Shown one piece after another: positions 9,365 through 59,130 of a stretch of 64,000 nt of DNA. Source of the stretch: Eledone cirrhosa (taxonomy: Eukaryota); the NCBI GenBank assembly GCA_964016885.1, contig OZ024742.1, forward strand, positions 26,536,001 through 26,600,000, read 5' to 3'. Under the pieces are notes generated by a model, which was given only the letters and a program-made list of their open reading frames with translations, did no database searches and was not told the origin of the DNA. The position numbers were made by a program, and so were the translations under genes. Every line of letters begins with the position of its first letter. Position 1 is the first letter of the stretch.

Positions 9365-10045
9365 CTTATCAATGTTTGTACATATAATTAACCTCCTATT
9401 CAACTGAAAAATCATATGGATACATATATATTGATGTTGTGATCAACAGTTTAGTATTTACAGGGTGTAATGGATGCGACATATAATACAAGAGAATAGT
9501 CTAATAATTAAAGAGGCATTGAGAAAGATTGAAGACACTAGCAGTACATATTCATAACTTTGATATTTGCGTAATTTATATTCCTGCTCTGTACAACACC
9601 TGATTTTCTTACATTGAGCTATTTCTCTTACTGGTAATAAGGTAGTAAGAAATTACTGACCTTTCCTGTTTATAGTATATATATAACTATAAATAATATC
9701 ATTATTATTATTATTATTATTGAATGCCATGGTTGACGGAGGCTCGGCTCTGTAAGGAATAGTAATTTTTAACCGCTATAACAATTGTAAATTGTTTAAA
9801 ACGTTAACCAACTTGTAGATAAAAACACCCTCCCCCTCGTGAGAGGGGTCTTTCTGCCCGTCATTTGGCCCTTCGGTGTTAAATAACCGCTTATTGGGGT
9901 TTTGTGCCCAATATTCATTTTAAACCCCAAAAAACAGGGCTACAAAAAATAATTTTCACAAGTCACTCCCACTCATTCCGTCTTCTTCTTCCTCGATCGT
10001 CACTACACCAGAGAGAAGATTGTCTCTCTCCCCCCTTCTCTAAAT

Positions 10046-12041
10046 GTGTCTCTCTCCCTCCCTTCTCTTTCGCAAGCGACGCCAGTAAAGAAAAAGAAAA
10101 ATATAGTTTCTGATAGTTTCCTCGATAACGTGCAAACCGAGGAACATTTCTCCACAACGACAACGACGACAAATGTGTCCGGTAAATACGGAAAGCCATT
10201 TCATTCGTCTGACGTCATGAATAATAGCAGTAGCAGCCGTAATAACTGTAGCAGCAGCAACAGTGGCAAGGAAAACAACAGTAGCAGCCGCAAAAGCACC
10301 AGCAGCAGCATAAGCAACAACAGCAGCAGCAACAACAACAACAGCAGCAGCAGCAGCAGCAGCAACCACAGCAACAGCGGTAGCGGCAGTCGTAATACCA
10401 GCAGCAACAACAAAAGTAACAACAAAGTAACGACAACAACAACAGCAACAAGAAAGAAAAATCAATCTCGTTTGCAGGTATCGTAAAGAACCTGGAAACC
10501 ATCCCTATAACAAATGAGGAATTACAGGAAGCAAAGAAGATGGTGACGAAAGCCGGACACCGAGCAATCTGCAAGGCAGACGAAAACATTTTCGAAACCC
10601 AACAGCACTGTGCGGTCACGTACCGTACACTAAGCACAAAATCCCGTAAGGTTGAAAGAGTCACAGAGGCTCAAATACAAAAAGCATTAGGGTCTGTGTG
10701 GCAGCGGAAAACGCATATCACCCGAGGCAAGAAATGTGCCACCGTGGTGGTGATTTTTGCCACACCCCAGGAGGCAAAGGCTCAATCCTTAGAGACCCTA
10801 AGGAGCGAGGAAATGGTGTTGGTGCCCTCCTGCTGCGGGCAAAAAATTGTGTGGGTCAAACTGACCCCCCCCCCCCCTCCGGGATGGCCCCTTCTTGTTT
10901 GGTCGCGTCTGTCCGTCCTCGTCGGAATCGAGGACAAAGCAGCTGAGATTGGTTAATCTAAACCAACCAGGAGTGCATCGAAGCTATCCCGGATGCGATA
11001 GACTTCGATAACGGCAGTCAACTGCCAATAAGTGTTGAGGGCAAACGCCTGAAATGATTTCGCTGTGGGTCGAAGACTCACCTCAAGGCCTTCTGCAATG
11101 AGAAAACCCTGAAAAAGGAGAAAACCCTCCTACTTTCGAAACCGGCTCCACTGCTACCAGCAACAGGACAGGCGGCAAGCACGAGGGATAGGTCCGTGGC
11201 ACGCATACCAACGCCACGGAAATTAAGAACAGCAGCAGCAGTGGAAGTATTAACAACAACAACAGTAATACCAACTGCAGCTGCAACAGAGACTCCACTG
11301 CAACCATCACCAACAAGAACAAGTGAAAGAGTGGAGCTGGTAACCCTCCCCGACCTCACAGAATCAGACATGGAGTGTGAGGTGGGAGAGGAATGGCAAA
11401 AGGTCGCAAGAAGACACAAACGCAGAAGCAGCGCATCGTTGCCTTCGAAAAGGGAGGAAAGAAATGAAAACAGGGTAAAGGCTACTGCAAATAGACTTAC
11501 TGCAGCAACACCACCAACACCATCACCACCCACACTAGCACCACCATCACCACCGGCGACAACCCCACCGCCAACAACAACAACACCTACAACACCACCA
11601 ACACCACAAGCACCAACATCGGAAACACAACAACAAAACACACACACCCAACAACAACGACAAGAAAATAGCAGAACCACACCCCACCCCCAGAAAAACA
11701 AATGCACGGCAATAAATACACACATGAAACTAATGACTTACATAATTGAACACACAGACATTTCACAGCACGACCACATAATACCAGCACCAATCAAAAC
11801 ACCAACGAACATAGGACTGGTAAGAATAGCCCAGAAACAATACACTAACATTAAAGCGAAATTCCCCAACGCAGTTGGTGATTTCGGAGACCTAGGAGGA
11901 ACTCTCAACCGGAGAGTATATTCGGATATAATAATAGAAGAGCCGACGACCAGCCGGAGGGACGATTCAACGGTCCTTTCACCAGACGATCAAGTGAAAA
12001 GGGATGGAGAAACCATCCTTCCTTTACGAGAAGTAGGGTAA
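10046..12041 (+). pseudogene. Tx1-A ORF1 (Ser/Asn-rich N-terminus, RRM-like region, eroded CCHC knuckle, Pro/Thr-rich C-terminus)
   Basis: Frames 10046, 10540 and 11196; VEGKRL..FRCGSKTHLKAFC at ~11035-11097; homologous to ORF1 of Tx1-B and Tx1-C. Confidence 0.75.
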
Positions 12042-12075
12042 GTGGTCTTTCCCATCTTTTCCACTCCATTTCAAC

Positions 12076-15000
12076 ATGACCTCACTCAGAATAGGCAGCA
12101 TAAATACGCGTGGCTTGGGGTCGTCATGGAAGCAGGGCCACCTGCTCATCACCTCAGGTCACTAAACATAGATGTAGTGGCCATCAGCGAAACCAGAATC
12201 TCCGAAGCGCGGGCCTTCGCACCGATCTTCGGCGGCTACGATGTGTACGCATCTCCCAGCCGTCCTGGATCCGGGGGGGGGGTAGGGGGTAGGAGTTGCT
12301 GTGCTTTTTCGGAGAGGTTTGGATCTCGCCATACGGGCTATCTACCTGGACCCAGAAGGTAAGTTGGTGGTGCTGGACTTGACCAGAGGAGACGGGCAAG
12401 CTTTCAGGCTAGTGGCCGTCTATGCCCTGACAGGAGCAGGGCGGCCTGATTTCTTCCGGCGTCTGGAGACCTTTCTTGGAACGTCCCGTTCTTTAGTGTT
12501 AGTGAGCGACTGGAACGGGATCTTCGATGCACGCTGGGACTGTGTGGGATTAGCGGGTAGGGGAGGAGGGTGCAATAGCCTCACCAAGCTGCTCAGGTAT
12601 TTTGAACTGTCTGACAGGCACCGATTGAATTTCCCGAATGTGCCAATGTGGACTTGGACAAATCGTATAGGGTTATCCAGATCATATCTAGATAGAGTAT
12701 TTTGTAGGGAAATAGATAGGTCTAGCATAGGCTGTCCTCAATTCAAGATATTCAGCTACACGGACCACAAATTCGTGATCTGTGTGCTTGACTTAGATAG
12801 GGTTCATAGACGAGGACCCGGCTACTGGAAGCTAAACGAGTCCTTACCAGCGCGCAAGGCCTACAGAGACCGTATTAGAGAACTGTTTAGCGGGCGTTGA
12901 CGGGGGCCATCGTCAACAACAAGTGGTGGTTTGCTCTAAAAAGAGCGATTAGAATAGAGTCCATTAGGTTTAGTAAGGCTTTAGCAATAGAGAAAAATAG
13001 AGCAGAAGGAGAATTAGTTAGAAAATAAGACGAGACGCTTAGCAAAGGCATCGCGACCGACGTATTTGCGGCGAAATTGGCCCTTGACCAATTCTTCAAT
13101 GCTTAGAACGAAAGCTGCGTTGTCAGAGCTAGGGTGCTTGCTCTGAGACACGATGGGACGAAAGCCGTTCAATGGGCCCGAGTGGCGGAGGCGCGTCGTG
13201 GCAACAAAACCACGATCCGGTCTTTGGTAGACCACGACGGGCGCATGCTACTCGATCCCGGGCAAATGTGTGAAGCTTTTCAGCGACACTTCGCACAGCT
13301 GTTCTGGGGGCAGCTGCGGGCCGGATCGACGGATGGGCTTTAGAGTCTACCTCGATGGACTGCCACGGCTCTCGGCCACTGAGTCGGAGTGTTGCGAAAA
13401 AGCCGATAACAGCCGTTGAAGCACGGGAGGCCATGACTGGCTGCACAAGGCGTAAATCGCCTGGTTTGGATGGTCTGCCCTATGAACTTTACGTACAGAT
13501 GCCAGACTTATTCGGAGGACTCTTGGCGGACGTCTACTGCAACTGGCAACAAAACGGGAGAATTCACAGCTCCGTGAGCCGAGGAGCGGTGGCACTGCTG
13601 AGAAAGGATCCGAACAAGGGGGATAACATAGATAATTTCAGGCCCATAACTCTGCTAAACACAAAGTTCAAGATTTTGGCCAAGGTGCTAGCAAATAAGT
13701 TGGCGCTTGTCGTTGGTGGTCTGGTGGGAGAGGCGCAGATTGTGCCATTTCCGACAGATCCATCCACGACAACCTCCACCTCATGCGATACATCGTAGAG
13801 AGGGTAGCTAGGAAACCTGGCACGGGTGGGTCCCTGATCAATTTAGATCAGTCGAAAGCATTTGATAGGGTTGAAGGCGGTTGGCTTTGGGCCCGTCTTC
13901 AGAGGCTGTATCGTTGCCATGCACAACGACATCTGCTCTGTGGTGAGAGTGAACGGTCACCTTTCAGAACCGTTCAACATCATGCGTTCTGTCCGGCAAG
14001 AATGTCCACCCCCCTCGTCCCTCCTGTACGTATTGACTCTCGACCCATTACTGCACAAACAGGAGACGTTGAGGGGCGTCCCGCGCGAACTAGGATGCGG
14101 AAGATCCGTGTCAGCATTTGCGGACAATGTCACCGTAGTGGTGTCGAACGCCAAACACATCGAGGCGAACGGCACTACACTAAGAGAATACGAAGCGGTG
14201 ACAGGAGCAATGATCAACCAGGAAAAGTCAGTGGACCTGCAGCTCGGCACCTGGAGAGGCAGACCCATGCCGTCCAACAGTGTCGTCGGGCGCTGGACGG
14301 ACTGACCGGTTAAATTGCTAGGGCTCTGTTTCGGTCCAGACCGCCAGACGGGCAAAAACTGGAACGAGGTGACGAGCAGGGTGGCTTCTCTCACCCAGAA
14401 ATGGGCGGAGAGGAAGCTAACGCGTACATCGTGTCCGTTATCTGCTACCGCCTGACCGTCGTACCTTGTCCTAAACCTCGTCTGACTGCGCTGGAGCGTT
14501 TGCTCTTTCGCTTTTTGTGGAAGGGACGCGCTCCGATGGTCAGGAGGTCCATCTGTTGTCAACACCCGCTACGTGGAGGGCTGTGCATGCCGTGGCTGAT
14601 GATGCGCAGACACGCGCTCAGGCTATGACATCTCCACCTCTTCCTCGACGGTGATCAGGTGTGGTGGCCGTTTGCTAGACGCGTCTTTCCCAACTCGTTT
14701 CCTTGACGGAGCTGCAGTCCTGGGTCAAGCAAAGAACGAGAGGGAGCGCTTGGTGACTGGAATGTCTTCAGGCGCTCACAGCCATCGACCAATTGGGCAA
14801 TGTGATAGTCGGAAACTCCACCTCGGCTTTCTATAGAGGATTAGTGGAGGGGAAGAGCGACGACGTACTTGGGGAAACTCTAGGCCTCGACGAGAATCAA
14901 CTAGCCAATCTCTTCGGAAGAATTTCGTGCCGGGGCTTATGGTCAACGTCCAGAAATCCCTGGCCTGGCAGTGCTACCTAGGAGCCTTGCCAGTTCGGCA

Positions 15001-15454
15001 GAAACTCTACAGGAAAGGAGGTGCCGAAAGTCGGGAATGTCCGAGATACGCGCAGGGCGAGGAAACCGTCCTGCACGTACTCGTCCAGTGTCCGACACAT
15101 GCTGACTTGTGTGTTTATGTCGAACACCTGCTGTCGCGTGTAGGACGGATACGGCTATCAGCTGAGTCCATCGTGAGGATTGCCCCGCCCACTTCCTTTA
15201 GTCGGGAAGGGTAGGCAGTTTTTATCTGTCTGGTGGCCATGGCGAAAGAGATATTATGGTGGGCACGTTTGAAAGGTCTGAAGACGAGCATTTACCTCTT
15301 CGGTGATGCCCTGATTGATTTTTTCAAATTTCATTTGAAAAGGAAAATCAGGGTAGAGAGGGAAGTGCTCTCTTCCCAGCATTTTGTTGAAAGATGGGTG
15401 AGAGAAGCAAGAATGTCCCGAGTGAATGGGCCTACTCTGAGTATGTGTCTCTAA
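12076..15454 (+). pseudogene. Tx1-A ORF2: AP endonuclease, reverse transcriptase, C-terminal zinc finger
   Basis: SET, DWN, SYLDR, TDH, GPGYWKLN, KSPGLDG, FRPITLLN, LDQSKAFD, FADN, CPR..ETVLH..C; many frameshifts. Confidence 0.92.
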
Positions 15455-15720
15455 ATTAAAGGTAGAAAACTGGGAGAGGACAGTTGCCCTGGTGCTCAGG
15501 GTCACTGTAGCCTTTTAATGGGCTTTCTCCACAAATGGCCCTCCGAAGTCTCTCCAATATTGGGGAATTTTTCATTGTTATTTTTTGTTACATCCTCTGT
15601 TTTTGTTTTTTACACGAAGAAATGCCCATTTGTATCGTCCTGTATTGTCCTGTACTGTCCTTAATTTCTACTTTATGTAAACCCCTGTGGTTAATAAAGA
15701 AAGCATTATTATTATTATTA

Positions 15721-21130: not shown

Positions 21131-21190
<60 letters not shown>

Positions 21191-24100
21191 GGGAAGAAGA
21201 CGCACGAGGTGGTAGAAGGTCATGAAATCGCTCCCGTAAGTTTTGAATTTTTAACATATTTAAATCATTTGTGAAATAACAACTCTTAGTACAAATGCTA
21301 CGCAAAGCATCCGGCTTGAGCCCCAAAAAATTCGGACCCAAAATATATTGTTATAAGGCTCAAATATTCAAATATTCAACTTTGTATTGTACATTGTATA
21401 TTCAAAGAAGAAAATGGCTGTAAATGGAAGAAGAACCCCCCTCCCTCCTCTGTCTACGCTATATAGAACAGCCAAACAACACCAATCTCACCAACACCAG
21501 AAACTAGATACAACACCTACCCCATCACCTCTCTGTGTACACTAAACACAACAGCCAGATAACGGCAATTTCACCACCACCACTCACTACTGCCATCATT
21601 ACCACCACTATCCCATCACCGCCGCCACCACTCCTTCATTGCTGCCACCGCTACAACACCATCACTACAGTAATACGATCACATCACCACCACCACTGCC
21701 TCGGTATCGACATCACCACCACCACAGTCTCAGTATCGATACCGCCGCTACTGTCTCCCACATCTCCCCGCCGCCACCACTATTCCCCTGTTAACTTGAG
21801 AGAGAAAGGGGAAGGTGGCGGTATCACTAGACAAGGGAGAGGCTAGCAAAAGATATAAATAGATTGACTTAGTGACCTGGCCACGGCCAAACGTCAACAT
21901 CAACAACTATGGGACTGCTGGCTCACCCCTTCCACACCAACAATATAAAAAGCCCCGACACCACCACCGACATAGCCAACAACAATAACAGCCAACTACA
22001 ACAAAAAGTATATTATATTATTGTAATGCACTGGGTGATTGCTGGCCTTGTGCCTGGAGTGGAGACAATTATTAATAATTTCATTCTTAAGCCACGCAAT
22101 GCTCACATTAAGGAACCACTCATGATAATAACAATTTAAAAAAAACAACAAAAGAAAAACCCCGTGACCAAGAAATACCGGGATGGCGGCTGGCGGGGAA
22201 TAGCCGTGTCTCTAGGGGAGAACGACCCCTCTAGTCTTGGTTGACACTCGTTCTAGAAGTGGTAACACGAAATGATTACCCCTTGGCGGTTAAGGATAAA
22301 TGGCGACAAAATAAAGTAAATGTCTAATGATAAAATCTCATACCGGATCGGCCGTCACCCGGGTAAAAAAGGGCCGCGTCCCTCAGAGAGGAACCAGACT
22401 GGGGTCGAAAAATCAGCTAACGGTTCAAACCTTCCCATCACTTCGGAGCTGCAGACCTCCCATAACCGGAATACTCCTACTATTGGCCCTCCATGCTCAC
22501 CACCAAGAAATCCAAAGAAAAAGAGAGAAAAATGGTCAAGGGAAGATAATAAAGAAGTCCTTGAGGCTTTCTACACTGCCATGTACTACCCATCAAATAC
22601 ATCGAATACAGAACAGACATATATCAACTGGAAAAAGAAACATCCCGAAAACAGAGGCTATATTGACAGTAACAAACTAGCCAATATTCGAAGAAATATT
22701 GTAAGAAAAAAGTTACTAACTGATATAGAAATTGATCAGATCAAGCTATTAGCACAAAGTCAGCGAAGAGAAAATGAAACATGTGTCAGTGAAAACGAGG
22801 TCAACTGTAACACTTCGAATCCCAGGGTTGGGGCGGAATCACTGGCAACAGAACAAATTAAAGAAAGGATCGAAAAAGTGGAGGGAGTGCATGCTCAGGA
22901 TGAAAATCCAAATGAAAATAATGAGATCGTAAATGATAAAGAAATGAATGAGAATGAACTTGCCAACTTGAAGGATGAAATTATGATCGAATGGATGAAA
23001 ATGAAAGAATCTGACATGGGGCAACGAGACACCCTCCCTAAGATCCAGAACTCCAAACAGAACCAAAAGATAATACACAAGACTGACATAATTCTCAAAA
23101 ACATTATCATCACAAACAAACTAAACATTACTGATTTAAATCATCTCTATTATGCATCGGCTAAAGTCACCACTCACTTATGTGGAGTGAAGATGAAAAA
23201 ACAAAGGAATTCCCACAAGAAATCTACTTGGCAAGAGAACATCAATCGCCAAATAAACCTTCTCCGATCTGACATTGAAATTTTAACAAACTATAAAGTA
23301 GGTGAACATGTTAAACAAACTAAACTTAGAAAATTGAAAAAAAAGTACAGTATAAAATCAACATGTGACATAGACATGCTGATAGAAATAATGAAGCAAA
23401 AAGTGTCGGCCAAAGCTGCTCGTATAAGGCGCTTTGAAAAACGATCTAGATTCTATAAGGACAATAATATGTTCAAAAACAACCAAAGAAACTTCTACAG
23501 AAAAATTGGTAAGTCAACAATAACTGCTAAATCAATACCACCCAAGGAGGAAGTGCAAGAGTTCTGGGAAAAGATCTGGGGCGAAGAAAAAGTTCATAAC
23601 ATACATGCCCCATGGATAGACAGACAAATGAAAGATACAGCTCACCTTGAGGAACAAACATGGGAAAATATAACAGTTGAACAGTTGCGCGGGCTCTAAG
23701 AAAAGCCAGCAAATGGAAATCCCCAGGAAAAGACAAAATACAAAACTTTTGGATAAATGCCTTCACAGAGTCTCATGAGCTGTTAGCCCAACTTTACAAT
23801 GAAATAGTTAAGGAGCCAGAAAAGATACCTTCATGGCTAGTTAACGGCATTACATTCCTGCTTCCGAAGAATGATGAGACAAACAATCCCAAAAATTACA
23901 GACCGATAACTTGCTTGACAACAATGTATAAAATTTTAACATCAGTCCTAACTGAATACACATATGACCACCTGATAACAAATGACCTATTTCCCATTGA
24001 GCAGAAAGGGTGTAAACGAGGCTCATATGGCTGTAAGTCTCAGCTTCTGGTTAACAAAATGATACTGGAAGATTGTCATAATAGACACAAAAATCTATCG

Positions 24101-26113
24101 ATTGCTTGGATAGATTATAAAAAAGCATCTGATAGTTTGCCACACAGTTGGATTGAAAAATGTTTAGAGATTTTCAAAGTATCCCCCGTTGTCAGGAGGT
24201 TTTTGTCATTCAGTATGAAGACATGGAAAACGACACTCCTTTTGAATAATGAAACAAAATCACTGGAAGCTGGAGAAGTTAATATTAATTGTGGAATTTT
24301 TCAGGGTGACTCTTTATCACCGCTTTTATTCTGCATCGCACTTATACTTTAAAAGTAAAATACTCAATGAAACAAAACATGGATATAAAGTCTATGACAA
24401 AACCATTAATCACCTGTTCTACATGGATGACCTGAAACTATTTGCAAAAAATGATGAACAATTGCAAGGGCTATTATCCACTGTGGAGCAGTTCAGTGAT
24501 GACATTAAAATGGAGTTTGGACTAGATAAATGCGCCAAAGCAACGTTCACCAGAGGAAAGCTGCTAAAGAGTTCAGACATTAATCTTGATCGGGGGAACG
24601 TGATAAGAGAACTTTATCAAGAAAAAACTTACAAATATCTAGGTGTTTGTGAAGGAGACGGAATCAAGCACTCGACAATGAGGGAAAGGATAAGGAAGGA
24701 ATGTTACCGCAGAGTAAGAGCAATCTTAAGAACGGAATTGAATGCAAGGAATAGGATCGATGCCATAAACACGCTTGCCATACCAGTAGTAACCTACAGT
24801 TACAATGTCATCAACTGGTCAAGCACAGAGATCCGTAGGCTCGATACAAAAATTCGAAAATTCTTAACCATGCACAGAATGCATCACCCTGAAGCAGATA
24901 TAGATATAATATATCTCACTAGGAAAGAAGGAGGACGTGGGTTAATCCAGTTAGACATTGCGTTGAAAACTGCAACAATTGGATTATCTACATATCTAAG
25001 GGTATCACATGATTGGATGATCAAACTCGTTTTGAAACACGAATGCATCAAAAGATCATATTCCATTACAAAAGATGCACAAAGATACAGTAATGGACTA
25101 CAAGTTTCAGAAGTCCCATTTACTGCTGAAATGGAAAACACAGAAAAAGCAAAGCAGGTAAAAGTAACTGCAAAGAAAGAAATGCTACAGAAACTGGCTA
25201 AGAAATGGCAAGAAAAGCCTCTGTATGGAAAATACCCAGAGCGAGCTAACAATCCTGATGTTGACAAAACTTTAACCCATCAGTGGTTGGCATCCTCTGG
25301 ACTGAAATCGGAGACTGAAGGACTGTTTATATCGGCACAAGATCAGTGTCTGCCAACAAAAAATTACCAAGCCAACATAATAAAAAATGGGTGCAGCCCA
25401 TTATGCCGTGTATGCAAAAAACAACCAGAGACCATTGACCATATAATTTCAATGTGCAGTCCTATAGCTCCAACCGAATACCTAAACAGGCATGACAGAG
25501 CTGCACAATACATACATTGGATAATGTGTAAGCATTTTGACCTGCCCCATCAAAAGAATTGGTGGGAGCATCAACCACCTCCCATACTTGAAAAAGGTCA
25601 CATCTCAATCTTGTGGAACTTTAGCATCCAAACAGACCGAAAAATAGATAAAAACAGACCTGATATAATACTGAAAGACTTTCAAAAGAGGGTATGCCTG
25701 CTAATTGATATGTCTGTTCCAATAGACAAGAATGTATCTATAAAAACATTTGAAAAATTGAGCCAGTATAAGGATCTGGAGATAGAAATTGGAAAAACGT
25801 GGAAATTGAGAACTAAAACAATACCAGTGGTTGTAGGCGCTCTGGGAATGATACCTAAGGGGTCTAATGATTACATATCGCAAATCCCAGGAAACCCGCG
25901 TATAGGAGAAATACAAAAGATAGTACTAATGGGAACTGCCCATATACTAAGGAAGATTCTGTCAATATAAGTACATCACAAGTCTAAACACTAAAGATGC
26001 ATGTGTGAATATGTATGTTCTTTCTTGAACATGGCGGACCTTGTTGTCTCTTGAGGTCACTGGTTGTGAGTTGGTGATAACTCGTATGAACATAAAGCAA
26101 GATAAATGCAACT

Positions 26114-26114
<1 letters not shown>
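21191..26114 (+). mobile_element. R4/Dong-clade RLE non-LTR retrotransposon, family R4-A, full length, in (TAA)n
   Basis: (TAA)n at 21131-21190 and 26115-26171; 1.1 kb leader; single long RT-RLE ORF. Confidence 0.9.
22320..25970 (+). pseudogene. R4-A polyprotein: RT, CCHC zinc knuckle, restriction-like endonuclease; frameshifts near 23695 and 24345
   Basis: WKSPGKD, NYRPITCL, EQKGC, GIFQGDSLSPLLF, YMDD, CRVC..ETIDHI.S.C, RHD, RPD..D..K..Y.DL. Confidence 0.92.
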
Positions 26115-26170
<56 letters not shown>

Positions 26171-26173
<3 letters not shown>

Positions 26174-26892
26174 GCTGCGCAGGAGCAGGCCCTCAAAACG
26201 AAGTGGTTGAAGCACCATATCTACAAGGAGGAGGCTAGCCCACTGTGCAGAATCTGTGGAGAGAGAGAGGAGACTGTGGCTCACATTGTGTCCGAGTGTA
26301 AACACCTAGCCCAGACCCACTATAAGGGCTGGAGACACGATGTGATGGGCAGGGTGATCCACTGGCACCTGTGCAAAGTAAACAATTTACCACATTCTGA
26401 GAAATGGTATGAGCATAGGCCAGAGGCGGTGATGGAGAACAATCAGGTGAAGGTGCTGTGGGATTTTAGGATACAGACGGACAAAAAACTGGAACACAAT
26501 AGACCTGACCTGGTGGTTGTGGACAAAGAAAAAAGATCGTGCCTGATTGTGGATGTGGCCTGCCCGTTCGACACGAGAGTGCAAGAGAAGGAGAGGGAGA
26601 AAATTAACCGATACCAGGACCTAAAGTGGGAGGTGAAAAGGATTTGGAACTGCCATGAAGTCAAAGTGATCCCGATTGTCATAGGCGCACTGGGGACTAT
26701 CTCCAAAGGTTTCCAGGGATGGTTAAAGAAAATCGGCCCCTTCACGCTTTTTGGAACGCTTCAAAAGGCATGCTTGCTTGGAACAGCAAGAACCCTCCGA
26801 TACGTCCTGAATATCTGAGGCTGCAGGTAGTGGCTTGATATTCAATCCAACGGACTTTCCAGTTAACCAACATCAATGACTGAGATTCAAGG
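26171..26892 (+). mobile_element. 5'-truncated R4-B copy (zinc knuckle, RLE, 3' UTR)
   Basis: Near-identical to 55413-56133; flanked by (TAA)n. Confidence 0.93.
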
Positions 26893-26921
26893 AATAACAA
26901 CAACAATAATAATAATAATAA

Positions 26922-29237
26922 TGTCCGTTTACAATTGTTAAACTACTTATTATAATGTTTCAGGATCAAATGATTATAGATCACTATTGATCTGGTTCAG
27001 TTGAAAATAATTAACTTAGGTAAAAATAGAGCAGCTCATCGGAACTTCAAAGTGAGTATAAATTAAAATAAGGAAAGAATGTTACATGAATGTAATCTTC
27101 CATATATTGGTATTTCACTATGGTGTCTTGCGTATATATATTATCTGCCATTACTGCTCTGATGACTGCCGGTGGGTGGGTAGAGTGTGGGCTAATATAT
27201 GTAAGTATTTCACCTGGTTTCACCATCAGAGCAGTAATCAAATATATCTCGTATAGGATCTCCATGCTATCAGCAAATGACGAAATATTTATAAACCATA
27301 CGGCATATTATAATAAGGCTCTTTCTGAATCTAGTTATGAACAGTCCATTTGACACATACATAAAAGCCATAACACAGCACTTCACCACAACCATAATAA
27401 ACTTAGCACTAGAACTAGAAATACCTTAGCATATAGCCAGATTCGCCAGAATGTTATCAGTAACAGCACCTATGTAGGGAACCGTAATGGTGGAACCGGC
27501 CTGCTTCCCACTCCAAGGAGCAAACTAAAAATCAACCCTAGAATAGGAATAAGCAATGGGATGACAAATAACAAATGCCAAGGTAATAATAACCCTATGA
27601 AGGCCCCTACCAACTCCACTAGAACCCCTAGAAGGAATAGGTCTAGAAATATCCCCTGGCTTAACCCTCCATTCTCATCTAATCTAGCCACTAGTATCCC
27701 TAAACGCTTCTTATCTATCCTATCTAAACATTCACCCCCCCCCCCAACCATAGATACTACAAACTATTTAATATAAACAACATTAAAATCTCATTCTCCA
27801 CAACACCTAACCTGGCTAGCCACATCGCATTAACTTACGATCGTAATAAGCTAATACATTATAACTCCCACACCGCGGTACCACCACACCATCAAATACA
27901 CCACCCCACTACACCAATACTTACTCTAGTAGCACCCATCTAATCCTTCTAGCACTGACCTACCGCTTATTTTAAACTACCCTACTCTCACTAACCGCAG
28001 AAATAACTGCAACTGCCGTTACCCTAATGCATGCCAACTAAATGGACATTGCCTGACACCCAATATAGTTTATAGGTGCACAGTTAAAACTGCTTCGCAT
28101 ACCAGCTCCTATATTGGCTCTACCTCTAACCCTTTTAAAGTACGCTGTAACGCGCACTCTTTTTCCTCCCGAGACCCTAACAACAGATGTTCGACATCTC
28201 TAGCTAGACTCATTAAAAACCTTAAATTAACCAACATTGAACACTCACTAACATGGGATATCTTGGTTTGGGCCCAATCGTTCAATGGACGAAGAAACAC
28301 TTGTGACCTCTGTCTTTCGGAAGCATATTACGTAACTCTATCATGACCTCTACCGATTAACGGTAGAACGGAGGTAACTATTAGCTGTCAACATCGAAGG
28401 GCTAATTCCTTCGCCAACAGAATATTTGACCCAACATAGTCATCTAGCCCCATTTTTACTTGAGTTAATAAGTTAAATAGTTATAGCAACTTAGATAATT
28501 ATAAGTTACATTGTCTCTCAATTAAACAATTTAAAAAATTAGCAATTCTTAACTATAAAATACCCCAAACTTATAATTTCTCGAGGAGTCACTTCCCCTG
28601 AAACGACGCTCTAATTAGTAAGGTAAATATGTCCATTTGTGGCCATCTGGTTACCTATAGGCAGATCTCACACAATGTAGCCTCGACAGAAGAATACTGC
28701 TCGACTATGGCAGGCAATAGATATACCCAGGACACCATAGTGAAATACCAATATATGGAACATTACATTCATATAACATTCTTTCCTTATTTTAATTTAT
28801 ATTCATTTTCAAGTTCCGATGAGCTGCTCTATTTTTACCTAAGTTAATTATTTTCAACTGAACCAAATCAATAATGATCTATAATCATTTGATCCAGAAA
28901 CATTATATGGAGTAGCGAAACAATTGTAAACGGAGATAATTATTATTAATATTATTATTATTATTCTCTACACTCCTTACATCAAACTAAAATAGTTGAC
29001 AATCTTTTAATAATATCTTCGTTGTGAAATTTGTGGTCTTGTTTTGCTTAACTAATGAATATTTCCAGCTCTGTGCACCTAATCTCTGCATGAACCCAGC
29101 AACCTAGTTGCCTTCTTCTGCATATTGCACATTATGCACATGCCTTTACGCTTTGGCTTCTAACTAATTCACTAATCTCTCCTCTCCTATCTCCTCTCCT
29201 ATCTCCATCTCTCTCTTTAAGATTGGTTATTCTTGAA

Positions 29238-29240: not shown

Positions 29241-29312
<72 letters not shown>

Positions 29313-29598
29313 AAAAAAAATAACGAAACGAAATTAAATTTCGTTTCGTTTGTAACTCACTTTTGTATGACTGACGCTTAAACAATTAAGTTAAAAATGT
29401 ACATCTGCATACTGAAATACTAGTATGCATATGAATACACACACGTATACATATGTAGATGTACCAAGTCTTTCACTGGTTACTTTACTGTGAGTATCCA
29501 GCTATTCTGTATGTAAACACACAGACAAACCGGTTTTTAGAGTCATACTGGTTTTTGAGGAAACACCTTTCCTCTATTTTCCAGAAAGCCAGACAAGG

Positions 29599-29643
29599 AA
29601 TATTGAACTAGTTTCGTTGTTGTTACAACTCATCAGCAATATT
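29599..29643 (-). ncRNA. Minimal type I hammerhead ribozyme (family H3)
   Basis: AAUAUUG-CUGAUGA-GUUG-UAACAA-CAAC-GAAA-CUA-GUU^CAAUAUU; perfect 7-bp stem I; palindromic stem III AACUAGUU. Confidence 0.9.
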
Positions 29644-30064
29644 TACCTATCTACCGGCCTTTCTGGAGAATCGTAAAAGCACATATCGTTATATGCTTTT
29701 TCTATGAAAATTAGTAGTGGGCAGACCAATTTGCATAGAGTGTGAGTACGCACCGGTTCAACGGAGACGATAAAAACAAATAACGAAACGAAATTAAATT
29801 TCGTTTCGTTTGTAACTCACTTTTGTATGACTGACGCTTAAACAATTAAGTTAAAAATGTACATCTACATATGCATACTGAAATACTAGTATGCATATGA
29901 ATACACACACGTATACATATGTAGATGTACCAAGTCTTTCACTGGTTACTTTACTGTGAGTATCCAGCTATTATGTATGTAAACACACAGACAAACCGGT
30001 TTTTAGAGTCATACTGGTTTTTGAGGAAACACCTTTCCTCTATTCTCCAGAAAGCCAGACAAGG

Positions 30065-30109
30065 AATATTGAACTAGTTTCGTTGTTGTTACAACTCATC
30101 AGCAATATT
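30065..30109 (-). ncRNA. Minimal type I hammerhead ribozyme (family H3), second copy
   Basis: Identical to 29599-29643, 466 bp away. Confidence 0.9.
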
Positions 30110-30575
30110 TACCTATCTACCGGCCTTTCTGGAGAATCGTAAAAGCACATATCGTTATATGCTTTTTCTATGAAAATTAGTAGTGGGCAGACCAATTTGC
30201 ATAGAGTGTGAGTACGTACCGGTTCAACGGAGACGATAAAAACAAATAACGAAACGAAATTAAATTTCGTTTCGTTTGTAACTCACTTTTGTATGACTGA
30301 CGCTTAAACAATTAAGTTAAAAATGTACATCTACATATGCATACTGAAATACTAGTATGCATATGAATACACACACGTATACATATGTAGATGTACCAAG
30401 TCTTTCACTGGTTACTTTACTGTGAGTATCCAGCTATTCTGTATGTAAACACACAGACAAACCGGTTTTTAGAGTCATACTGGTTTTTGAGGAAACACCT
30501 TTCCTCTATTCTACATATGTATACGTGTGTGTATTCATATGCATACTAGTATTTCAGTATGCATATGTAGATGTC

Positions 30576-34767: not shown

Positions 34768-38103
<3,336 letters not shown>

Positions 38104-38172
38104 ATATATATATATATCTCTATATATATATATACATATATATATTTATATATATATATATATTTATATATT

Positions 38173-40751: not shown

Positions 40752-40827
<76 letters not shown>

Positions 40828-40840
40828 CATATACATATAC

Positions 40841-40940
<100 letters not shown>

Positions 40941-40989
40941 ATATATACATATATATATATATATCTTGTGATTCTATAGACATGTTTTA

Positions 40990-41026
<37 letters not shown>

Positions 41027-41053
41027 GTAAATATATATATATACATATATATA

Positions 41054-41120
41054 TTTATAATGCGCATTTCAAAAACAAACATCATCATGCAATAATATTT
41101 GTGTTTTCATCAGATAAAAC
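41054..41120 (-). ncRNA. Hammerhead ribozyme family H4 (inverted arm)
   Basis: GUUUUAU-CUGAUGA-stem II-GAAA-UGCGC-AUU^AUAAA. Confidence 0.65.
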
Positions 41121-41976
41121 AGGAGGACATGATATGAAGGCTAAAAAACACTTGTGGATAGTGCAGTTTTAAATCAACATATGAAAAGTAATTTTAGATT
41201 GATGTGTGATATTGGGAAAATATTTTGTTTAGAGAGGGGGGTGGAAAGGATGAAAAAAAGGGGAGGAGATGAGAGTGAAGGTGGAGAGGGAGAGATGGGT
41301 GATAGAGAGAAAGAGATAGTTTTTATAACTGAGAAAAGATATATTGTTTTACATAGAGAGGTTGAAAACCGTTGGAAGATAATGTATAAATGAAAAGAAT
41401 TTGAAAATTAACGAAGGGAAAAATATGTACGAAGAAGGAGAGGGAGTTAATATGTATTTAGATTGAAAAGTTTGATGATAGAGAGAAAAGAATAAAGTAT
41501 TGCGGATGATTATTCTAACGTCAAAAAAAAAAAAAAAAAAAAAAAATTGTGTGTAAACAATTTTTTTTTTTTTGACTTTAGAATATTCATCCGCTATACA
41601 TTATTCTTTTCTCTCTATCATCAAACTTTTCAATCTCAATACATATTAACTCCCTCTCCTTCTTCGTACATATTTTTCCCTTCGTTAATTTTCAAATTCT
41701 TTTAATTTATACATTATCTTCCAACGGTTTTCAACCTCTCTATATAAAACAATATATCTTTTCTCAGTTATAAAAACTATCTCTTTCTCTCTATCACCCA
41801 CCTCTCCCTCTCCACCTTCACTCTCATCTCCTCCCCTTTTTTTCATCCTTTCCACCCCCCCTCTCTAAACAAAATATTTTCCCAATATCACACATCAATC
41901 TAAAATTACTTTTCATATGTTGATTTAAAACTGCACTATCCACAAGTGTTTTTTAGCCTTCATATCATGTCCTCCT

Positions 41977-42045
41977 GTTTTATCTGATGAAAACACAAAT
42001 ATTATTGCATGATGATGTTTGTTTTTGAAATGCGCATAATAAAAT
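41977..42045 (+). ncRNA. Hammerhead ribozyme family H4
   Basis: GUUUUAU-CUGAUGA-AAACACAAA..UGUUUGUUUUU-GAAA-UGCGC-AUA^AUAAAAU; palindromic stem III AUGCGCAU. Confidence 0.78.
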
Positions 42046-42227
42046 ACATGGAACACCTTTAACCATCTTTTGATCTTATATATTATGTATACTCCAGTCC
42101 TACAAACTGTAGAGTGCTTCTTATCCGATATCTGCATTGCTTTATTCTACTACAATAAAACTCACCTCCTACATATATATATTTATATATATATTTTTAT
42201 ATATATATATATATACATATATATATT

Positions 42228-42332
<105 letters not shown>

Positions 42333-51223: not shown

Positions 51224-51292
<69 letters not shown>

Positions 51293-51295
<3 letters not shown>

Positions 51296-54200
51296 CGCAC
51301 GAGGTGACGGAGGTCATGAAATCGCTCCCGTAAGTTTTGAATTTTTAACATATTTAAATCATTTGTGAAATAACAACTCTTAGTACAAATGCTACGTAAA
51401 GCACCCGGCTTGAGCCCCCAAAAAATTCGGACCCAAAATATATTGTTATAAGGCTAAAATATTCAAATATTCAACTTTGTATTGTACACTGTATATCCAA
51501 AAAAAAATGGCTATAAATGGAAGAAGAGGAACCCCCCCCTCCTCTCCCCTGGCTACACTATATAGGACAGCTAAACTCACCAACACCAGAAACTAGATAC
51601 ACCACCCACCCCATCATCTGTGTACACTAAACACAACAGCATTTTCACCTTCACCGCCACCGCTCACTACGGCCATCATTACCACCACTATCCCATCACC
51701 GCCGCCAGCACCCCTTGACTCCTTCACTGCTGCTGCCACCGCTACAGCACCATCACTACAGTAATACGGCTCAAATATTCAAATATTCAACTTTGTATTG
51801 TACACTGTATATCCAAAAAAAAAAATAAAATGGCTATAAATGGAAGAAGAAGAACCCCCCCCCCCCTCCTCTCCTCTGGCTACACTATATAGGACAGCGA
51901 AACTCACCAACATCAGAAACTAGATACACCACCCACCCCATCATCTGTGTACACTAAACACAACAGCATTTTCACCTTCACCGCCACCGCTCACTACGGC
52001 CATCATTACCACCACTATCCCATCACCGCCGCCACCACCCCCTGACTCCTTCACTGCTGCTGCCACCGCTACAGCACCATCACTACAGTAATACGGTCGC
52101 ATCACCGCCACCACTGCCTCGGTATCGACATCACCACCACCACTGTCTCAGTATCGCCAACGCCGCCAATCTCTGCTGGCTACCACTTCCACATTATAGA
52201 ATTCCAACTACTAACAAAGAGGAAGGCATCAAAATATATAGATAGACTCAAAAGAAAAAAGAAAAAACAAACAACAAAAGCAGCACAGCAACAACAGTAA
52301 AAAACGAGAAAAACAGAGAAAAACAAAAACAAAAAAAGAAACCCCAAAAACGTAAAGAAAATAAGAATGAAGAGAGAAGCAGGCGGACGGACAGAGAAGA
52401 GGGGGGAAAAAGTAAAACTTAAAAAACAAAAACTAAGTCAGACATTCGAATACTACATTACAATGAAACTTATGCTTATTCATTTTTGGGGCCCTTTCTG
52501 CCCGTGTGTTTGTTTGTTTATGTGTGTCCGTATACAGCGTGGTGATAATGCCACACAAGGGCCAAGTGGGATGGCGGATCCACAGATGGCTATGTAAACA
52601 TACATTCGCCAATCCTCGATAAGAGTGTTTAAATATCGAACATAAACAGTTCGAATAACGGTGAAATGGAGACTAGAACGTCATGTGACAGACTCTCACC
52701 CAACAGGTGCCCCCTGGCTCAGCAGCAGGAACCTGACTGTCAACCAAATACTGCTGATGTTGGAGGAAGAAGAAGAAGGAAAGGGGCCAGAACCAACTGG
52801 ACGAAAGAATTGAATAGAACTGTTATGCAATGCTACCTGAAAAGTAACCCCAAGGAGAGGGGCTACAGGAGACGGATGCATAACATCTGGAACGAGATTG
52901 GTTTATTTAAATTAGATGAACAAAAATTGGCAGGGCAGGCTCGGGTAATAAGAACTAATGGGTGGATAAGCGAGCTGGAACTGGAGGAACTGAGCAGAGA
53001 GAATGGCTTGGAGATGGCGGGTGTAGTATGCCAGACAAGCGAGCCGGCGGGAAATGAAGGTGAGGAGGTCCTGAGAACGGAGGAACCACCCGAAGCAGAC
53101 AATGATCTGAATACTGAGATAAATAATACCTGGAACAGAGATACGGCCACTGAGGGGATGAATGCTGACGGGCTAGGACAAGATTCGGTTGACATCCTAA
53201 ATTTAGTGGTAGATGAGTTGAACAATGATAGTGGGAGACCTATGAACCTAAGATTTGTAGACAGGAAAAAGTTAAAAGAAACAACAGCTAAGGTAAACAA
53301 AGTCATCCCATACCTTGAGGCGAGGAGTCTTCACCAGTGCAACAATATCCTCAAAGCAACAGCAAATACGGTGAGGAAACTACTTGGTATAAAAGCGAGA
53401 GGAAACAACAGACAAGAAAGAGCAGAGCCGTGGTGGAGGAAGCGACTGAGTGGTCAAATCGGGGAAATGAGAAATGACATAGGAAAGCTTGAGTCACTAC
53501 TGAATGGGACACTAAAAAACATAGGCACTAAAAATAGACTGGAAATAAAATACAAAACTAGGAGTAAAAAGCTAAATATTATCATAGAGGAATTGAAGCA
53601 ACGCATTGTAGCAAAGAGTGCCAAAATCAGGCGATACGAGAACAGAGTCAGTCAGTATAAACAGAACCGCATGTTCGACAACAACCAGAAGATGCTGTTT
53701 GGACAGCTTGAGGGGAAAGAAAGAGGCAACGACTTGATCCCTGGGGCGGAACAAGCTAAAACATTCTGGAGAGGAATATGGGAGCAGGATGTTAGACACA
53801 ATGCCCAGGCGGGGTGGATTGAGACAGTACAGATGGAGATCGGTGAGCAGGCACAGCAACAGACTGATTTGAGTATCACAGTTGAAACTCTTAAGGGGCA
53901 AGCCAAAAAACTAACCAACTGGAAATCACCAGGCCCAGATGGTGTGCAGGGGTATTGGATTAAACATTTAACATCCCTCCACCCGAAGCTGACGGCCATG
54001 TTCAATGACTGCTTGGTGTCGGGTGAGGTGCCAGAGTGGTTGACAAAAGGTACCACAGTTCTGATAATGAAAGACCGAATCAAGGGTAATGATGTCACCA
54101 ACTATAGACCTATCACATGTCTGCCCGTAATGTGGAAACTGTTGACGAGCATTGTGTCTGAGGAAATCTACCATCACCTCCACACAAACAACTTGTTGCC

Positions 54201-56133
54201 GGACGAACAGAAAGGATGCCGAAAGAAGTCACGTGGTACAAAGGACCAGTTGCTTATTGATAAGATGGTAATGGGGAATTGCAGGAGGAGGCACACTGAT
54301 CTTGCCATGGGATGGATAGACTACAGAAAGGCATTTGACATGGTGCCTCATTCCTGGATCACCAAAAGCCTGGAGATCTTCAGGGTGGCAGATAACATCA
54401 GACAGTTGCTGGGCAGGAGTATGGGGTCCTGGGAGACAGAGTTGACATCAACTGGAGTATCCTTGGGAAGCGTGAAGATCAAGAGAGGTATCTTCCAGGG
54501 AGATAGCCTGTCCCCTCTGTTGTTTGTCCTTGCCCTGATGCCCTTGACCATTATGCTGCGAAAAGTGAGAGCAGGATACAAGTTGGGAAGGGGAGAGCTT
54601 ACCATCAATCACCTCCTCTTCATGGACGATCTTAAGCTCTTCGGGAAAAGAGAGAAGGAGTTGGATGTGCTTGTTGACACTGTCCGTATTTTCAGCAGTG
54701 ATATATGTATGCAGTTTGGTATTGGTAAATGTGGAGTCATTGTGATGAGGAGGGGTAGGTTGAGCAGAAGTAACGGGATCCAGATACCAACAGGTGAGAT
54801 GATAAAGGAAATTGACTCTGAGGAAGGATACAAGTATTTGGGCGTTCTGGAGGCTGATGGCATAAAGAACAAAAAAATGAAGGAATTGTTAAGAACTGAA
54901 TACATTCGGAGAGTAAGGAGCGTATTGAAGTCACATCTGAACAGCAGAAATGCCAATAAGCGCAGTAAATTCCCGAGCTGTGTCTATTATTAGGTACAGT
55001 GCGGGAATCCTGAGATGGAATGTTGCTGAACAAAAAGAAATGGATAGGAAGACTAGGAAGCTATTGACTATCTACAACATGTTCCACAAGAGGAGTGATG
55101 TCGATAGACTCTACCTAAGGAGATCTGAGGGTGGAAGAGGTCTTATCAGCATAGAGGACTGTGTTCAGATGGAGAAAAACAACCTATACAAATACGTGAC
55201 CTATAGTAAGGAGCCAATGCTCAGAGCTGTACTGAAGGAGGGGACAGTAGGCCAGGGGATACCCAAGGAGGAAATAACATCAAGGAGGAAGAGCAGCCGT
55301 AAGGGAAAATCCCTTCATAGTACCTTCTTTGAGAAAACTGAATTTAGAGATCCACAGACATGGAACTGGTTGAGAAGTGGAGACCTCAAAAAGGCTACAG
55401 AAGGAATGCTAATGGCTGCGCAGGAGCAGGCCCTCAAAACGAAGTGGTTGAAGCACCATATCTACAAGGAGGAGGCTAGCCCACTGTGCAGGATCTGTGG
55501 AGAGAGAGAGGAGACTGTGGCTCACATTGTGTCCGAGTGTAAACACCTAGCCCAGACCCACTATAAGGGCTGGAGACACGATGTGATGGGCAGGGTGATC
55601 CACTGGCACCTGTGCAAAGTAAACAATCTACCACATTCTGAGAAATGGTATGAGCATAGGCCAGAGGCGGTGATGGAGAACAGTCAGGTGAAGGTGCTGT
55701 GGGATTTTAGGATACAGACGGACAAAAAACTGGAACACAATAGACCTGACCTGGTGGTTGTGGACAAAGAAAAAAGATCGTGCCTGATTGTGGATGTGGC
55801 CTGCCCGTTCGACACGAGAGTGCAAGAGAAGGAGAGGGAGAAAATTAACCGATACCAGGACCTAAAGTGGGAGGTGAAAAGGATTTGGAACTGCCATGAA
55901 GTCAAAGTGATCCCGATTGTCATAGGCGCACTGGGGACTATCTCCAAAGGTTTCCAGGGATGGTTAAAGAAAATCGGCCCCTTCACGCTTTTTGGAACGC
56001 TTCAAAAGGCATGCTTGCTTGGAACGGCAAGAACCCTCCGATACGTCCTGAATATCTGAGGCTGCAGGTAGTGGCTTGATATTCAATCCAATGGACTTTC
56101 CAGTTAACCAACATCAATGACTGAGATTCAAGG
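51293..56133 (+). mobile_element. R4/Dong RLE retrotransposon, family R4-B, full length, in (TAA)n
   Basis: (TAA)n at 51224-51292 and 56134-56190; leader with ~320 bp tandem duplication; RT-RLE ORF. Confidence 0.93.
52666..56059 (+). CDS. R4-B polyprotein (RT, CCHC knuckle, restriction-like endonuclease), single +1 frameshift near 54955
   Basis: WKSPGPDG, NYRPITCL, DYRKAFD, GIFQGDSLSPLLF, FMDD, CRIC..ET..HI.S.C, RHD, RPD..D..K..Y.DL; the copy at 56338 lacks the extra A. Confidence 0.92.
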
Positions 56134-56145
56134 AATAACAATAAC

Positions 56146-56190
<45 letters not shown>

Positions 56191-56192
<2 letters not shown>

Positions 56193-57521
56193 GGAAATTG
56201 ACTCTGAGGAAGGATACAAGTATTTGGGCGTTCTGGAGGCTGATGGCATAAAGAACAAAAAAATGAAGGAATTGTTAAGAACTGAATACATTCGGAGAGT
56301 AAGGAGCGTATTGAAGTCACATCTGAACAGCAGAAATGCCATAAGCGCAGTAAATTCTCGAGCTGTGTCTATTATTAGGTACAGTGCGGGAATTCTGAGA
56401 TGGAATGTTGCTGAACAGAAAGAAATGGATAGGAAGACTAGGAAGCTATTGACTATCTACAACATGTTCCACAAGAGGAGTGATGTCGATAGACTCTACC
56501 TAAGGAGATCTGAGGGTGGAAGAGGTCTTATCAGCATAGAGGACTGTGTTCAGATGGAGAAAAACAACCTATACAAATACGTGACCTATAGTAAGGAACC
56601 AATGCTCAGAGCTGTACTGAAGGAGGGGACAGTAGGCCAGGGGATGTCCAGGGAGGAAATAACATCAAGGAGGAAGAGCAGCCTTAAGGGAAAACCCCTT
56701 CATGGTACGTTCTTTGAGAAAACTGAATTTAGAGATCCACAGACATGGAACTGGTTGAGAAGAGGAGACCTCAAAAAGGCTACAGAAGGAATGCTAATGG
56801 CTGCGCAGGAGCAGGCCCTCAAAACGGAGTGGTTGAAGCACCATATCTACAAGGAGGAGGCCAGCCCGCTGTGCAGGATCTGTGGAGAGAGAGAGAGGAG
56901 ACTGTGGCTCACATTGTGTCCGAGTGTAAACACCTAGCCCAGACCCACTATAAGGGCTGGAGACACGATGTGATGGGCAGGGTGATCCACTGGCACCTGT
57001 GCAAAGTAAACAATCTACCACATTCTGAGAAATGGTATGAGCATAGGCCAGAGGCGGTGATGGAGAACAATCAGGTGAAGGTGCTGTGGGATTTTAGGAT
57101 ACAGACGGACAAAAAACTGGAATACAATAGACCTGACCTGGTGGTTGTGGACAAAGAAAAAAGATCGTGCCTGATTGTGGATGTGGCCTGCCCGTTCGAC
57201 ACGAGAGTGCTGGGAGAAGGAGAGGGAGAAAATTAACCGATACCAGGACCTAAAGTGGGAGGTGAAAAGGATTTGGAACTGCCATGAAGTCAAAGTGATC
57301 CCGATTGTCATAGGCGCACTGGGGACTATCTCCAAAAGTTTCCAGGGGTGGTTAAAGAAAATCGGCCCCTTCACGCTTTTTGGAACGCTTCAAAAGGCAT
57401 GCTTGCTTGGAACAGCAAGAACCCTCCGATACGTCCTGAATATCTGAGGCTGCAGGTAGTGGCTTGATATTCAATCCAACGGACTTTCTAGTTAACCAAC
57501 ATCAATGACTGAGATTCAAGG
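56191..57521 (+). mobile_element. 5'-truncated R4-B copy
   Basis: Near-identical to 54805-56133; flanked by (TAA)n. Confidence 0.93.
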
Positions 57522-57560
57522 AATAACAATAACAATAATAATAATAATAATAATAATAAT

Positions 57561-59108: not shown

Positions 59109-59130
59109 TAATAATAATAATAATAATAAT

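Follow-up and report, generated by a model that had tools for sequence, protein, structure and literature searches.

RLE-type elements such as R2 obtain their RNA by excision from host transcripts, and to our knowledge there is no settled account of how the microsatellite-targeting R4/Dong elements get transcribed. The window analysed here, that is, the whole 64-kb stretch taken from the 3.0-Gb assembly of Eledone cirrhosa, holds three APE-type LINEs and two RLE-type elements (Table 1), and raises the question whether elements of these two kinds can have one and the same 5' leader. A preliminary description of the window had claimed that they do, and had explained it by a portable cassette moved between Tx1-A and the R4 elements. 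If such a leader is indeed common to the two clades, it has to be asked to which of them it properly belongs, in which direction it was transferred and what it does for the elements carrying it.

The identities given earlier to the elements were borne out, Tx1-A having an APE and an RT, and R4-A and R4-B an RT with a CCHC/PD..D nuclease and no APE. In Tx1 ORF2 the N-terminal APE is followed by RT motifs, and PF03372 was matched at E 0.0012 in the broken A frame and at E 2e-6 and 2e-8 in Tx1-B and Tx1-C. These three elements are 68-72% alike across ORF2, and the Tx1 elements possess a separate ORF1 with a CCHC zinc knuckle. Translation of R4-A and R4-B gave a single ORF with an RT and a C-terminal CCHC plus PD..D/E nuclease, no PF03372 (APE) match was obtained in either of them, and their homologs are single RT proteins of 1050-1200 aa. 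The two R4 proteins show 26-47% amino-acid identity, their coding DNA does not align, and in an RT tree that gave R4-A no firm position, 23 of 114 outside proteins had a smaller distance to the RT piece of R4-A than R4-B has; yet despite such diverged proteins the first 480 nt of the two elements are 86% alike. The clade names Tx1 and R4/Dong follow architecture and target repeats; insertion at (TAA)n, a Dong trait, is shown by R4-A and R4-B, the R4 homologs bore no informative names, and searches of PDB sequences for R4 placement returned no match. In PMC4640811, the Tx1 and RLE clades are treated as separate groups with different nucleases.

Table 1. Features of the window (positions are those of the whole stretch; folds are predicted and derivations putative)
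Feature	Position	Strand	Remarks
Tx1-A	9722-15700	+	APE-type LINE
Tx1-B	from 15722		5'-truncated APE-type LINE
Tx1-C		minus	5'-truncated APE-type LINE
R4-A	21190-26100	+	RLE-type element
R4-B	51295-56130	+	RLE-type element
(ATT)n target repeat	9701..9721	+	Ahead of Tx1-A
Tx1-A 5' leader	9722..9935	+	Family-typical Tx1 5' UTR; most divergent among families seen
Tx1-A core motif and T-rich block	9746..9773	+	Core GGCTCTGTAAG; portion truly common to R4 and other Tx1 leaders
Conserved Tx1 hairpin	9862..9885	+	Predicted fold, 50-70 nt ahead of ORF1 start
Tx1-A body	9936..15700	+	ORF1 (start codon altered in window copy) and APE-RT ORF2, broken
(TAA)n target repeat	21131..21189	+	Ahead of R4-A
R4-A leader	21190..21413	+	Putatively Tx1-derived; core TCGCTCCCGTAAG at 21228-21240; upstream ATG at 21414
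R4-A CAC/AAC-rich broken reading frames	21414..22022	+	Behind leader ATG; might derive from the beginning of a Tx1 ORF1
SINE-like tail and ATT/AAT junction	22023..22079	+	Within R4-A 5' region; putative nested-insertion trace
R4-A inner 5' UTR	22080..22319	+	Family's own; presumably the older UTR
R4-A ORF	22320..25970	+	RT and RLE, broken
(TAA)n target repeat	51224..51294	+	Ahead of R4-B
R4-B leader	51295..51506	+	Putatively Tx1-derived; core at 51322-51334; upstream ATG at 51507
Remainder of long R4-B 5' region	51507..52632	+	With 327-nt tandem duplication
R4-B ORF	52633..56059	+	RT and RLE, one frameshift

The matching blocks on which the claimed homology was based are indeed present in Tx1-A, R4-B and R4-A, but tested against shuffled sequences this pair gave only a borderline result. 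Over 12 combinations of scoring and length, z was 0.9-4.3, and the score of Tx1-A against R4 was equalled by 0 to 438 of 2000 dinucleotide shuffles, depending on the combination. R4-B was the best non-self segment for the Tx1-A leader among 2128 in the 64 kb, and family-typical copies aligned globally end to end gave z 3.6-5.9 for A against R4-B (300 shuffles; the ATG end used as anchor was included). Two of the blocks did not hold: TGACGGAG is private to the R4-B subfamily and is probably a chance match, as it was found in 1 of 13 diverse R4 leaders, and the CCCCAAAAAA blocks fall at non-equivalent places in a multi-family alignment. A common repeat site had also been described; the microsatellite is indeed the same, but it is used on opposite strands, Tx1-A lying behind (ATT)n (ATT run upstream in 29/30 loci of its family) and R4 behind (TAA)n (TAA/AAG run ahead of 30/30 R4-B-type and 30/30 R4-A-type loci). 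With the strands opposite, sharing of a site yields head-to-head pairs and not read-through neighbours. Similarly, R4 does start at the repeat junction, but its normal start lies 10 nt earlier with AGGGAAGAAG, which was found in 27/30 R4-B-type and 25/30 R4-A-type loci and is absent at the copy at 51293, the R4-B window copy being without the first 10 nt of the family start.

The leaders were, as claimed, located at element 5' ends and not as a free repeat, since the A, R4-B-type and R4-A-type leaders run into their own bodies. Among the copies that scored highest of the 1400-1800 candidates a first look gave for each leader, a selection and not a random sample, 30/30 A leaders extended into the Tx1-A body for at least 575 nt, 30/30 R4-B-type leaders into the R4-B body and 29/30 R4-A-type leaders into the R4-A body; conversely, the leader was found upstream in 15 of 20 loci chosen by their R4-A ORF. 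An independent SINE or MITE was rejected, as in these best-scoring copies nearly all leaders continue into their LINE bodies. We also rejected the reading in which 21190 would be an R4-B cut short and followed by an R4 unrelated to it, as the link between the leader and R4-A is family-wide.

That a 5' leader is common to APE-type and RLE-type clades was confirmed through other Tx1 families and not through the pair originally compared. All the Tx1 families recovered (A, B, C, F, K and an old group) carry one leader type of 200-235 nt, in which a GCTCC-GTAAG-like core at +25-50 is followed by a T-rich block, a hairpin, an A-run and the ATGG opening ORF1; leave-one-out profiles were among the evidence for this. 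Full-length starts of Tx1-B and Tx1-C were taken from elsewhere in the genome (their window copies being 5'-truncated), F represents a fourth family, and K, a fifth one, was found blind with a profile of A, B, C and F. Families A, B, F and K lie behind (ATT)n and C behind (TATC)n. The Tx1 hairpin is predicted at -5.6 to -16.4 kcal/mol in A, B, C, F and K and at a median of -9.6 kcal/mol in 24 old-group copies, with values of -8.5 to -16 kcal/mol for the majority of old-group copies and for A, B, F and K. In other copies of Tx1-A, ORF1 is read from the ATG directly after the leader; position 9937 of the window copy is unlike the other copies of its family, and one contig run added only copy variants. 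With these families alone the link to R4 was weak and no more than suggestive. A profile built from R4 leaders only, applied to 808 kb, placed the F and B leaders above all background (E 0.09-0.7) and matched Tx1-A only at model positions 41-86, and the A, B, C and F profile scored R4 leaders at E 0.26-14. Out of 187 unrelated sequences flanking junctions, none scored above F, 1 scored above B, 2-8 above A and 6-8 above C. Tx1-only profiles applied to G-type R4 leaders gave best E values of 9e-5 to 14 over 7 distinct builds, and the choice of families mattered. The leader is the normal Tx1 5' UTR, carried also by TAA-targeting R4 families, and what had been taken for a stand-alone cassette passed between Tx1-A and R4 is instead the usual 5' UTR throughout the local radiation of Tx1. 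It may be added that at least four more ATT-targeting Tx1 families were noticed (loci L243-L289), with distinct first 30 nt and the same core motif.

The decisive evidence for homology was obtained by searching the R4 core genome-wide behind (ATT)n, where R4 rarely sits. This gave 367 matches against 1 for the reversed pattern (repeat offsets make these counts overlap), and of 26 distinct loci, 20 had a Tx1 ORF1 or APE within 2 kb, 1 had R4 and 5 had neither. One locus, L280, scored 38.9 bits on the R4 profile and led to an old, decayed Tx1 group whose copies are 68-84% alike. This seed was picked for its best score on the R4 profile; the other copies were gathered by similarity to L280 and not to R4, so that the homology holds. 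Among 30 loci of the old group, a downstream Tx1 ORF1/APE was strong in 15 and weak in 2, and R4 was present in none. The set used for comparison (n=14) comprised 13 strong loci with near-whole leaders and the weak L297; L304, L317, L314 and 13 loci without a downstream match were excluded. The R4-only profile matched 12 of these 14 leaders at E <= 5e-5 (best 1.8e-15), colinearly over model 19-206. In the reverse direction, an old-group profile from which the search core had been removed ranked the R4 leaders first in the window (21250-21387 at E 5e-8 and 51343-51483 at E 3e-7) and reached Tx1-A only at E 3.7. Between core and hairpin, R4 leaders share 56-65% identity with the old group, as against 50-57% with F and 43-46% with Tx1-A. 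Thus, as judged by sequence comparison, the homology of the R4 leader to Tx1 5' leaders is confirmed. Tx1-A had been presented as the partner of R4; it is the most distant version of the leader, the closest donors belonging to the old, decayed group, and is a distant cousin of the donor and not the partner.

The exact donor was not found among these copies. The first 35 nt of the R4 leader had no old-group match, most matches beginning at model 33-42, and are more like the start of family C than that of the old group. A search with (ATT)n followed by GGGA..ACRCAC yielded no Tx1 donor, 8 of 30 loci being R4 leaders and the others different repeats or chance, and a pattern placed behind TATC, TA or TC repeats gave 5 matches and no new family. 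Dozens of matches to the (ATT)n plus GGGA..ACRCAC pattern fall in a satellite array with a period of 55-nt multiples (G000:C28:15730906-15784568).

We put at about two in three the probability that the ~220-nt, Tx1-homologous leader of TAA-targeting R4/Dong elements was captured from an old Tx1 family and works as an internal Pol II promoter. The leader forms the 5' edge of full-length copies, ahead of the first ATG, and an internal promoter would explain why the start lies right at the edge of the module in elements of the two clades, and also why R4 has retained the front half of the module. In distant R4 leaders the first 112 columns are 79% alike and the remainder 53%, the core showing the highest column conservation (0.96), and in 5/5 R4 leaders the predicted hairpin no longer folds (0 to -3.5 kcal/mol). 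Retention of the first 110 nt along with loss of the hairpin fits a DNA promoter. The constraint on the R4 leader looks like one on sequence motifs and not on structure, because no base-paired fold is common across families and no Rfam match was obtained. Selection in R4 would then keep the first 110 nt, with the E-box-like start, the GCTCCCGTAAG core and the T-rich block, and would leave the Tx1 hairpin and ORF1 start to decay. E-box-like hexamers were noticed near the start in B, C, K and all 5 R4 representatives, and not in A or F; these fit a promoter role and prove nothing. As per PMC3600994, 5' UTRs of the L1 group are internal promoters and are often replaced.

It could also be argued that the leader, though captured from Tx1, acts on RNA, GTAAG serving as a splice-donor-like U1 element or the whole as a leader for translation or stability, with transcription driven by flanking DNA. 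The resemblance of the most conserved letters to a splice donor does extend over A, C, F, R4 and old-group leaders, and in both clades the leader ends with an A-run and ATGG. However, no conserved acceptor lies ahead of the ATG in the leaders, GTAAG is altered in families B and K, and most full-length copies have a fixed 5' edge, as an internal promoter would give; we consider such a role unlikely. A spliced-leader RNA was also considered for the donor-like motif and rejected, as there was no conserved fold and no Rfam match and the leader is always fused to a LINE; its U-rich block is without the closing G of the Sm-site consensus.

A self-cleaving ribozyme, or a promoter-ribozyme pair like Pr77, which cuts the element out of host transcripts would account for the sharp and constant 5' ends; such ribozymes are known at the 5' ends of R2 and L1Tc (PMC3774820 and PMC3383444), and a 5' hairpin is possible in both A and R4-B. 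But leaders of R4-A-type, G-type, F and K elements do not preserve this hairpin, and the sole conserved hairpin is the one lost in R4. No Rfam match at gathering score was obtained in the window, the leaders of 4 loci at E <= 10 gave only repeat-driven miRNA-type noise, and folding z values were -1.0 and +1.7. With no covariance-model match and no conserved nested or pseudoknot fold, an HDV-like or other self-cleaving ribozyme was rejected as a candidate, and we regard this explanation as very improbable against that of an internal promoter. The inner UTR of R4-A gave no Rfam match at E <= 10 beyond noise; several GC-rich inverted repeats are visible in it by eye, and it may represent an older 5' structure.

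As regards the direction of transfer, the leader appears to have passed from Tx1 to R4, with later swaps among R4 families, because it is general, diverse and complete in Tx1 and decayed in R4. The ATG following the R4 leader opens only short broken frames; in Tx1 the ATG at the same place is the ORF1 start in use. An R4-like lineage was noticed behind (TACA)n and not (TAA)n (L228, L233, L236); it is abundant, with 2472 candidates. This lineage is 28-39% identical to R4-B and has an unrelated 5' end (best profile E 1.4; 3 full-length among 20 loci). R4 relatives from other organisms have a median of 395 nt outside the ORF, with 3/41 above 1300 (from 41 short contigs, which may be cut, among 52 hand-picked full-size rows of 120), and the elements here have about 1350 nt upstream. 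The opposite history, in which the leader went from R4 to Tx1 or was taken by both clades separately from a host gene, would be in keeping with the first 35 nt of the R4 leader having no clear Tx1 donor and with there being no direct intermediate among 108 Tx1 leaders. Against it, the leader is found in all Tx1 families, is more diverse there and has its hairpin and ORF1 start intact, one R4-like lineage is without it, and the similarity of R4 leaders to one Tx1 group exceeds that of the Tx1 families to one another; the chances of this history we would call slim. Least probable of all is that the captured leader is a neutral passenger hitch-hiking with a successful R4 lineage, for although its 3' half and the region downstream decay and rearrange freely, its first 110 nt stand at 79% and its core at 0.96 where 3' halves fell to 53%, and it is present in two deeply diverged R4 families.

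Under capture from Tx1, an R4 RNA would have become attached downstream of a Tx1 5' end, either by nested insertion and read-through from the Tx1 promoter or by a template switch during reverse transcription. The chimera, freed from dependence on host read-through, would have spread, passed its leader on to the second, deeply diverged family R4-A and would still be swapping it among R4 subfamilies. No same-strand nest of a Tx1 front and R4 was found when R4 was sought within 1.8 kb of 108 Tx1 leaders, and head-to-head Tx1/R4 pairs were found at 13 of the 108 (these loci were partly chosen for R4). With the repeat strands opposite and no same-strand nest among the 108, the capture route itself was not observed. 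R4-B-like subfamilies show 80-97% protein identity (over the N-terminal part seen) and leaders 66-95% alike, which is consistent with one old capture. The leaders of R4-A and R4-B are 78-96% alike, and R4-A must have gained its leader separately, because the leader region is followed by an ATT/AAT junction, by a SINE-like tail and by another UTR further in; in 2 of 20 loci (L112, L120) the junction occurs without the SINE-like tail. Such a layout would result if R4-A had landed in the 5' region of an element that carried the leader, with copying from the start of that element. The window copy of R4-A is, from its sequence, a recent mosaic: over 570 nt from 21190 it agrees at 94-96% with an R4-B-type locus, and what follows agrees at 96% with R4-A, the CAC/AAC-rich region being R4-B-type to about 21760 and R4-A-type beyond. 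The reading of this CAC/AAC stretch as an ORF1 remnant failed a protein profile test (best E 0.065, composition-driven); its position and composition fit Tx1 ORF1, and the DNA matches were of biased type only. Where the R4-B frame begins (about 52640-52690) there is a word like TGTCA(C/T)GTGACA, which is met again near the old-group ORF1 start (L290-L319, E about 0.5) and could be a second captured Tx1 piece.

LINEs with a 5' end derived from another class of retroelement have a parallel in BovB/RTE, whose 5' ends are reportedly built from SINE heads and 3' fragments of CR1; here, unlike that case, it would be the intact 5' UTR of another autonomous LINE clade. For mammalian L1, PMC3600994 describes 11 replacements of the 5' UTR/promoter in mouse, some from ancient families, and as in that system the 5' ends here vary independently of the coding body, old leaders are reused and families recombine. 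There, however, L1 both gives and receives the 5' end, or the origin of the new part is unknown (PMC3600994), and here the transfer would be from an APE-type Tx1 to an RLE-type R4 with different target strands. The trypanosomatid L1Tc/ingi Pr77 is likewise a short 5' module found in several retroelement families and is an internal promoter (PMC3383444, PMC8190864 and PMC4035085), but its inheritance is confined to one clade with the derivatives of that clade, and it doubles as an HDV-like ribozyme, a fold not supported here. R2 with its 5' HDV-like ribozyme is, similarly, RLE-type and site-specific and needs a defined 5' end; it is cut from an rRNA co-transcript (PMC3774820), whereas these R4 elements appear to import a leader. 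In Octopus vulgaris, Dong-R4 (5 families, 1129 insertions, 4.7 Mb) and L1-Tx1 (13 families) are described as recently active in PMC13282606, and activity of octopus Dong-R4 and Tx1 families is reported also in PMC9115989; judging by size and repeats, the genome analysed here is probably similar. In the passages covered, neither survey discusses these 5' ends, and UTRs are not mentioned in those of PMC13282606. No published account of a leader transfer from APE-type to RLE-type elements, or of a Tx1 leader on R4, was found in the literature covered, Repbase reports and most subscription papers being outside its scope.

The traceable Tx1 leader at the 5' end of R4/Dong elements is a concrete candidate for their promoter; its 13-nt core is conserved in both of these distant clades, and the question of R4/Dong transcription thereby becomes testable. 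Recruitment of 5' UTRs, which is known within L1, would then reach over from APE-type to RLE-type elements, and a single genome would show the donor group, the recipient and the swaps that came later. Somewhat short of even odds is what we would give to the wider proposal that R4/Dong became promoter-autonomous by means of a Tx1 promoter, which was passed to a second R4 family and enabled thousands of microsatellite copies, and that nests at microsatellites serve as a promoter marketplace for unrelated LINE clades.

A few further observations were made. Head-to-head Tx1/R4 arrangements on one (TAA/ATT)n tract were seen at L036, L041, L043, L047, L050, L053, L057, L058, L107, L112 and others, and such pairs would set two related promoters back to back. 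Within the window, several 5'-truncated R4-A/R4-B copies lie in tandem at TAA tracts at 54805-59130 and 24567-26922. The minus-strand stretch 35219-37730 is, by its translation and motif, presumably a Penelope-like RT element; it gave no Pfam match, and a long inverted repeat (37748-38104) adjoins it. The stretch 29310-30574 holds a tandem repeat of 466 nt, one end of which is inverted, and an inverted repeat of 1.6 kb was noticed at 40760-42329.
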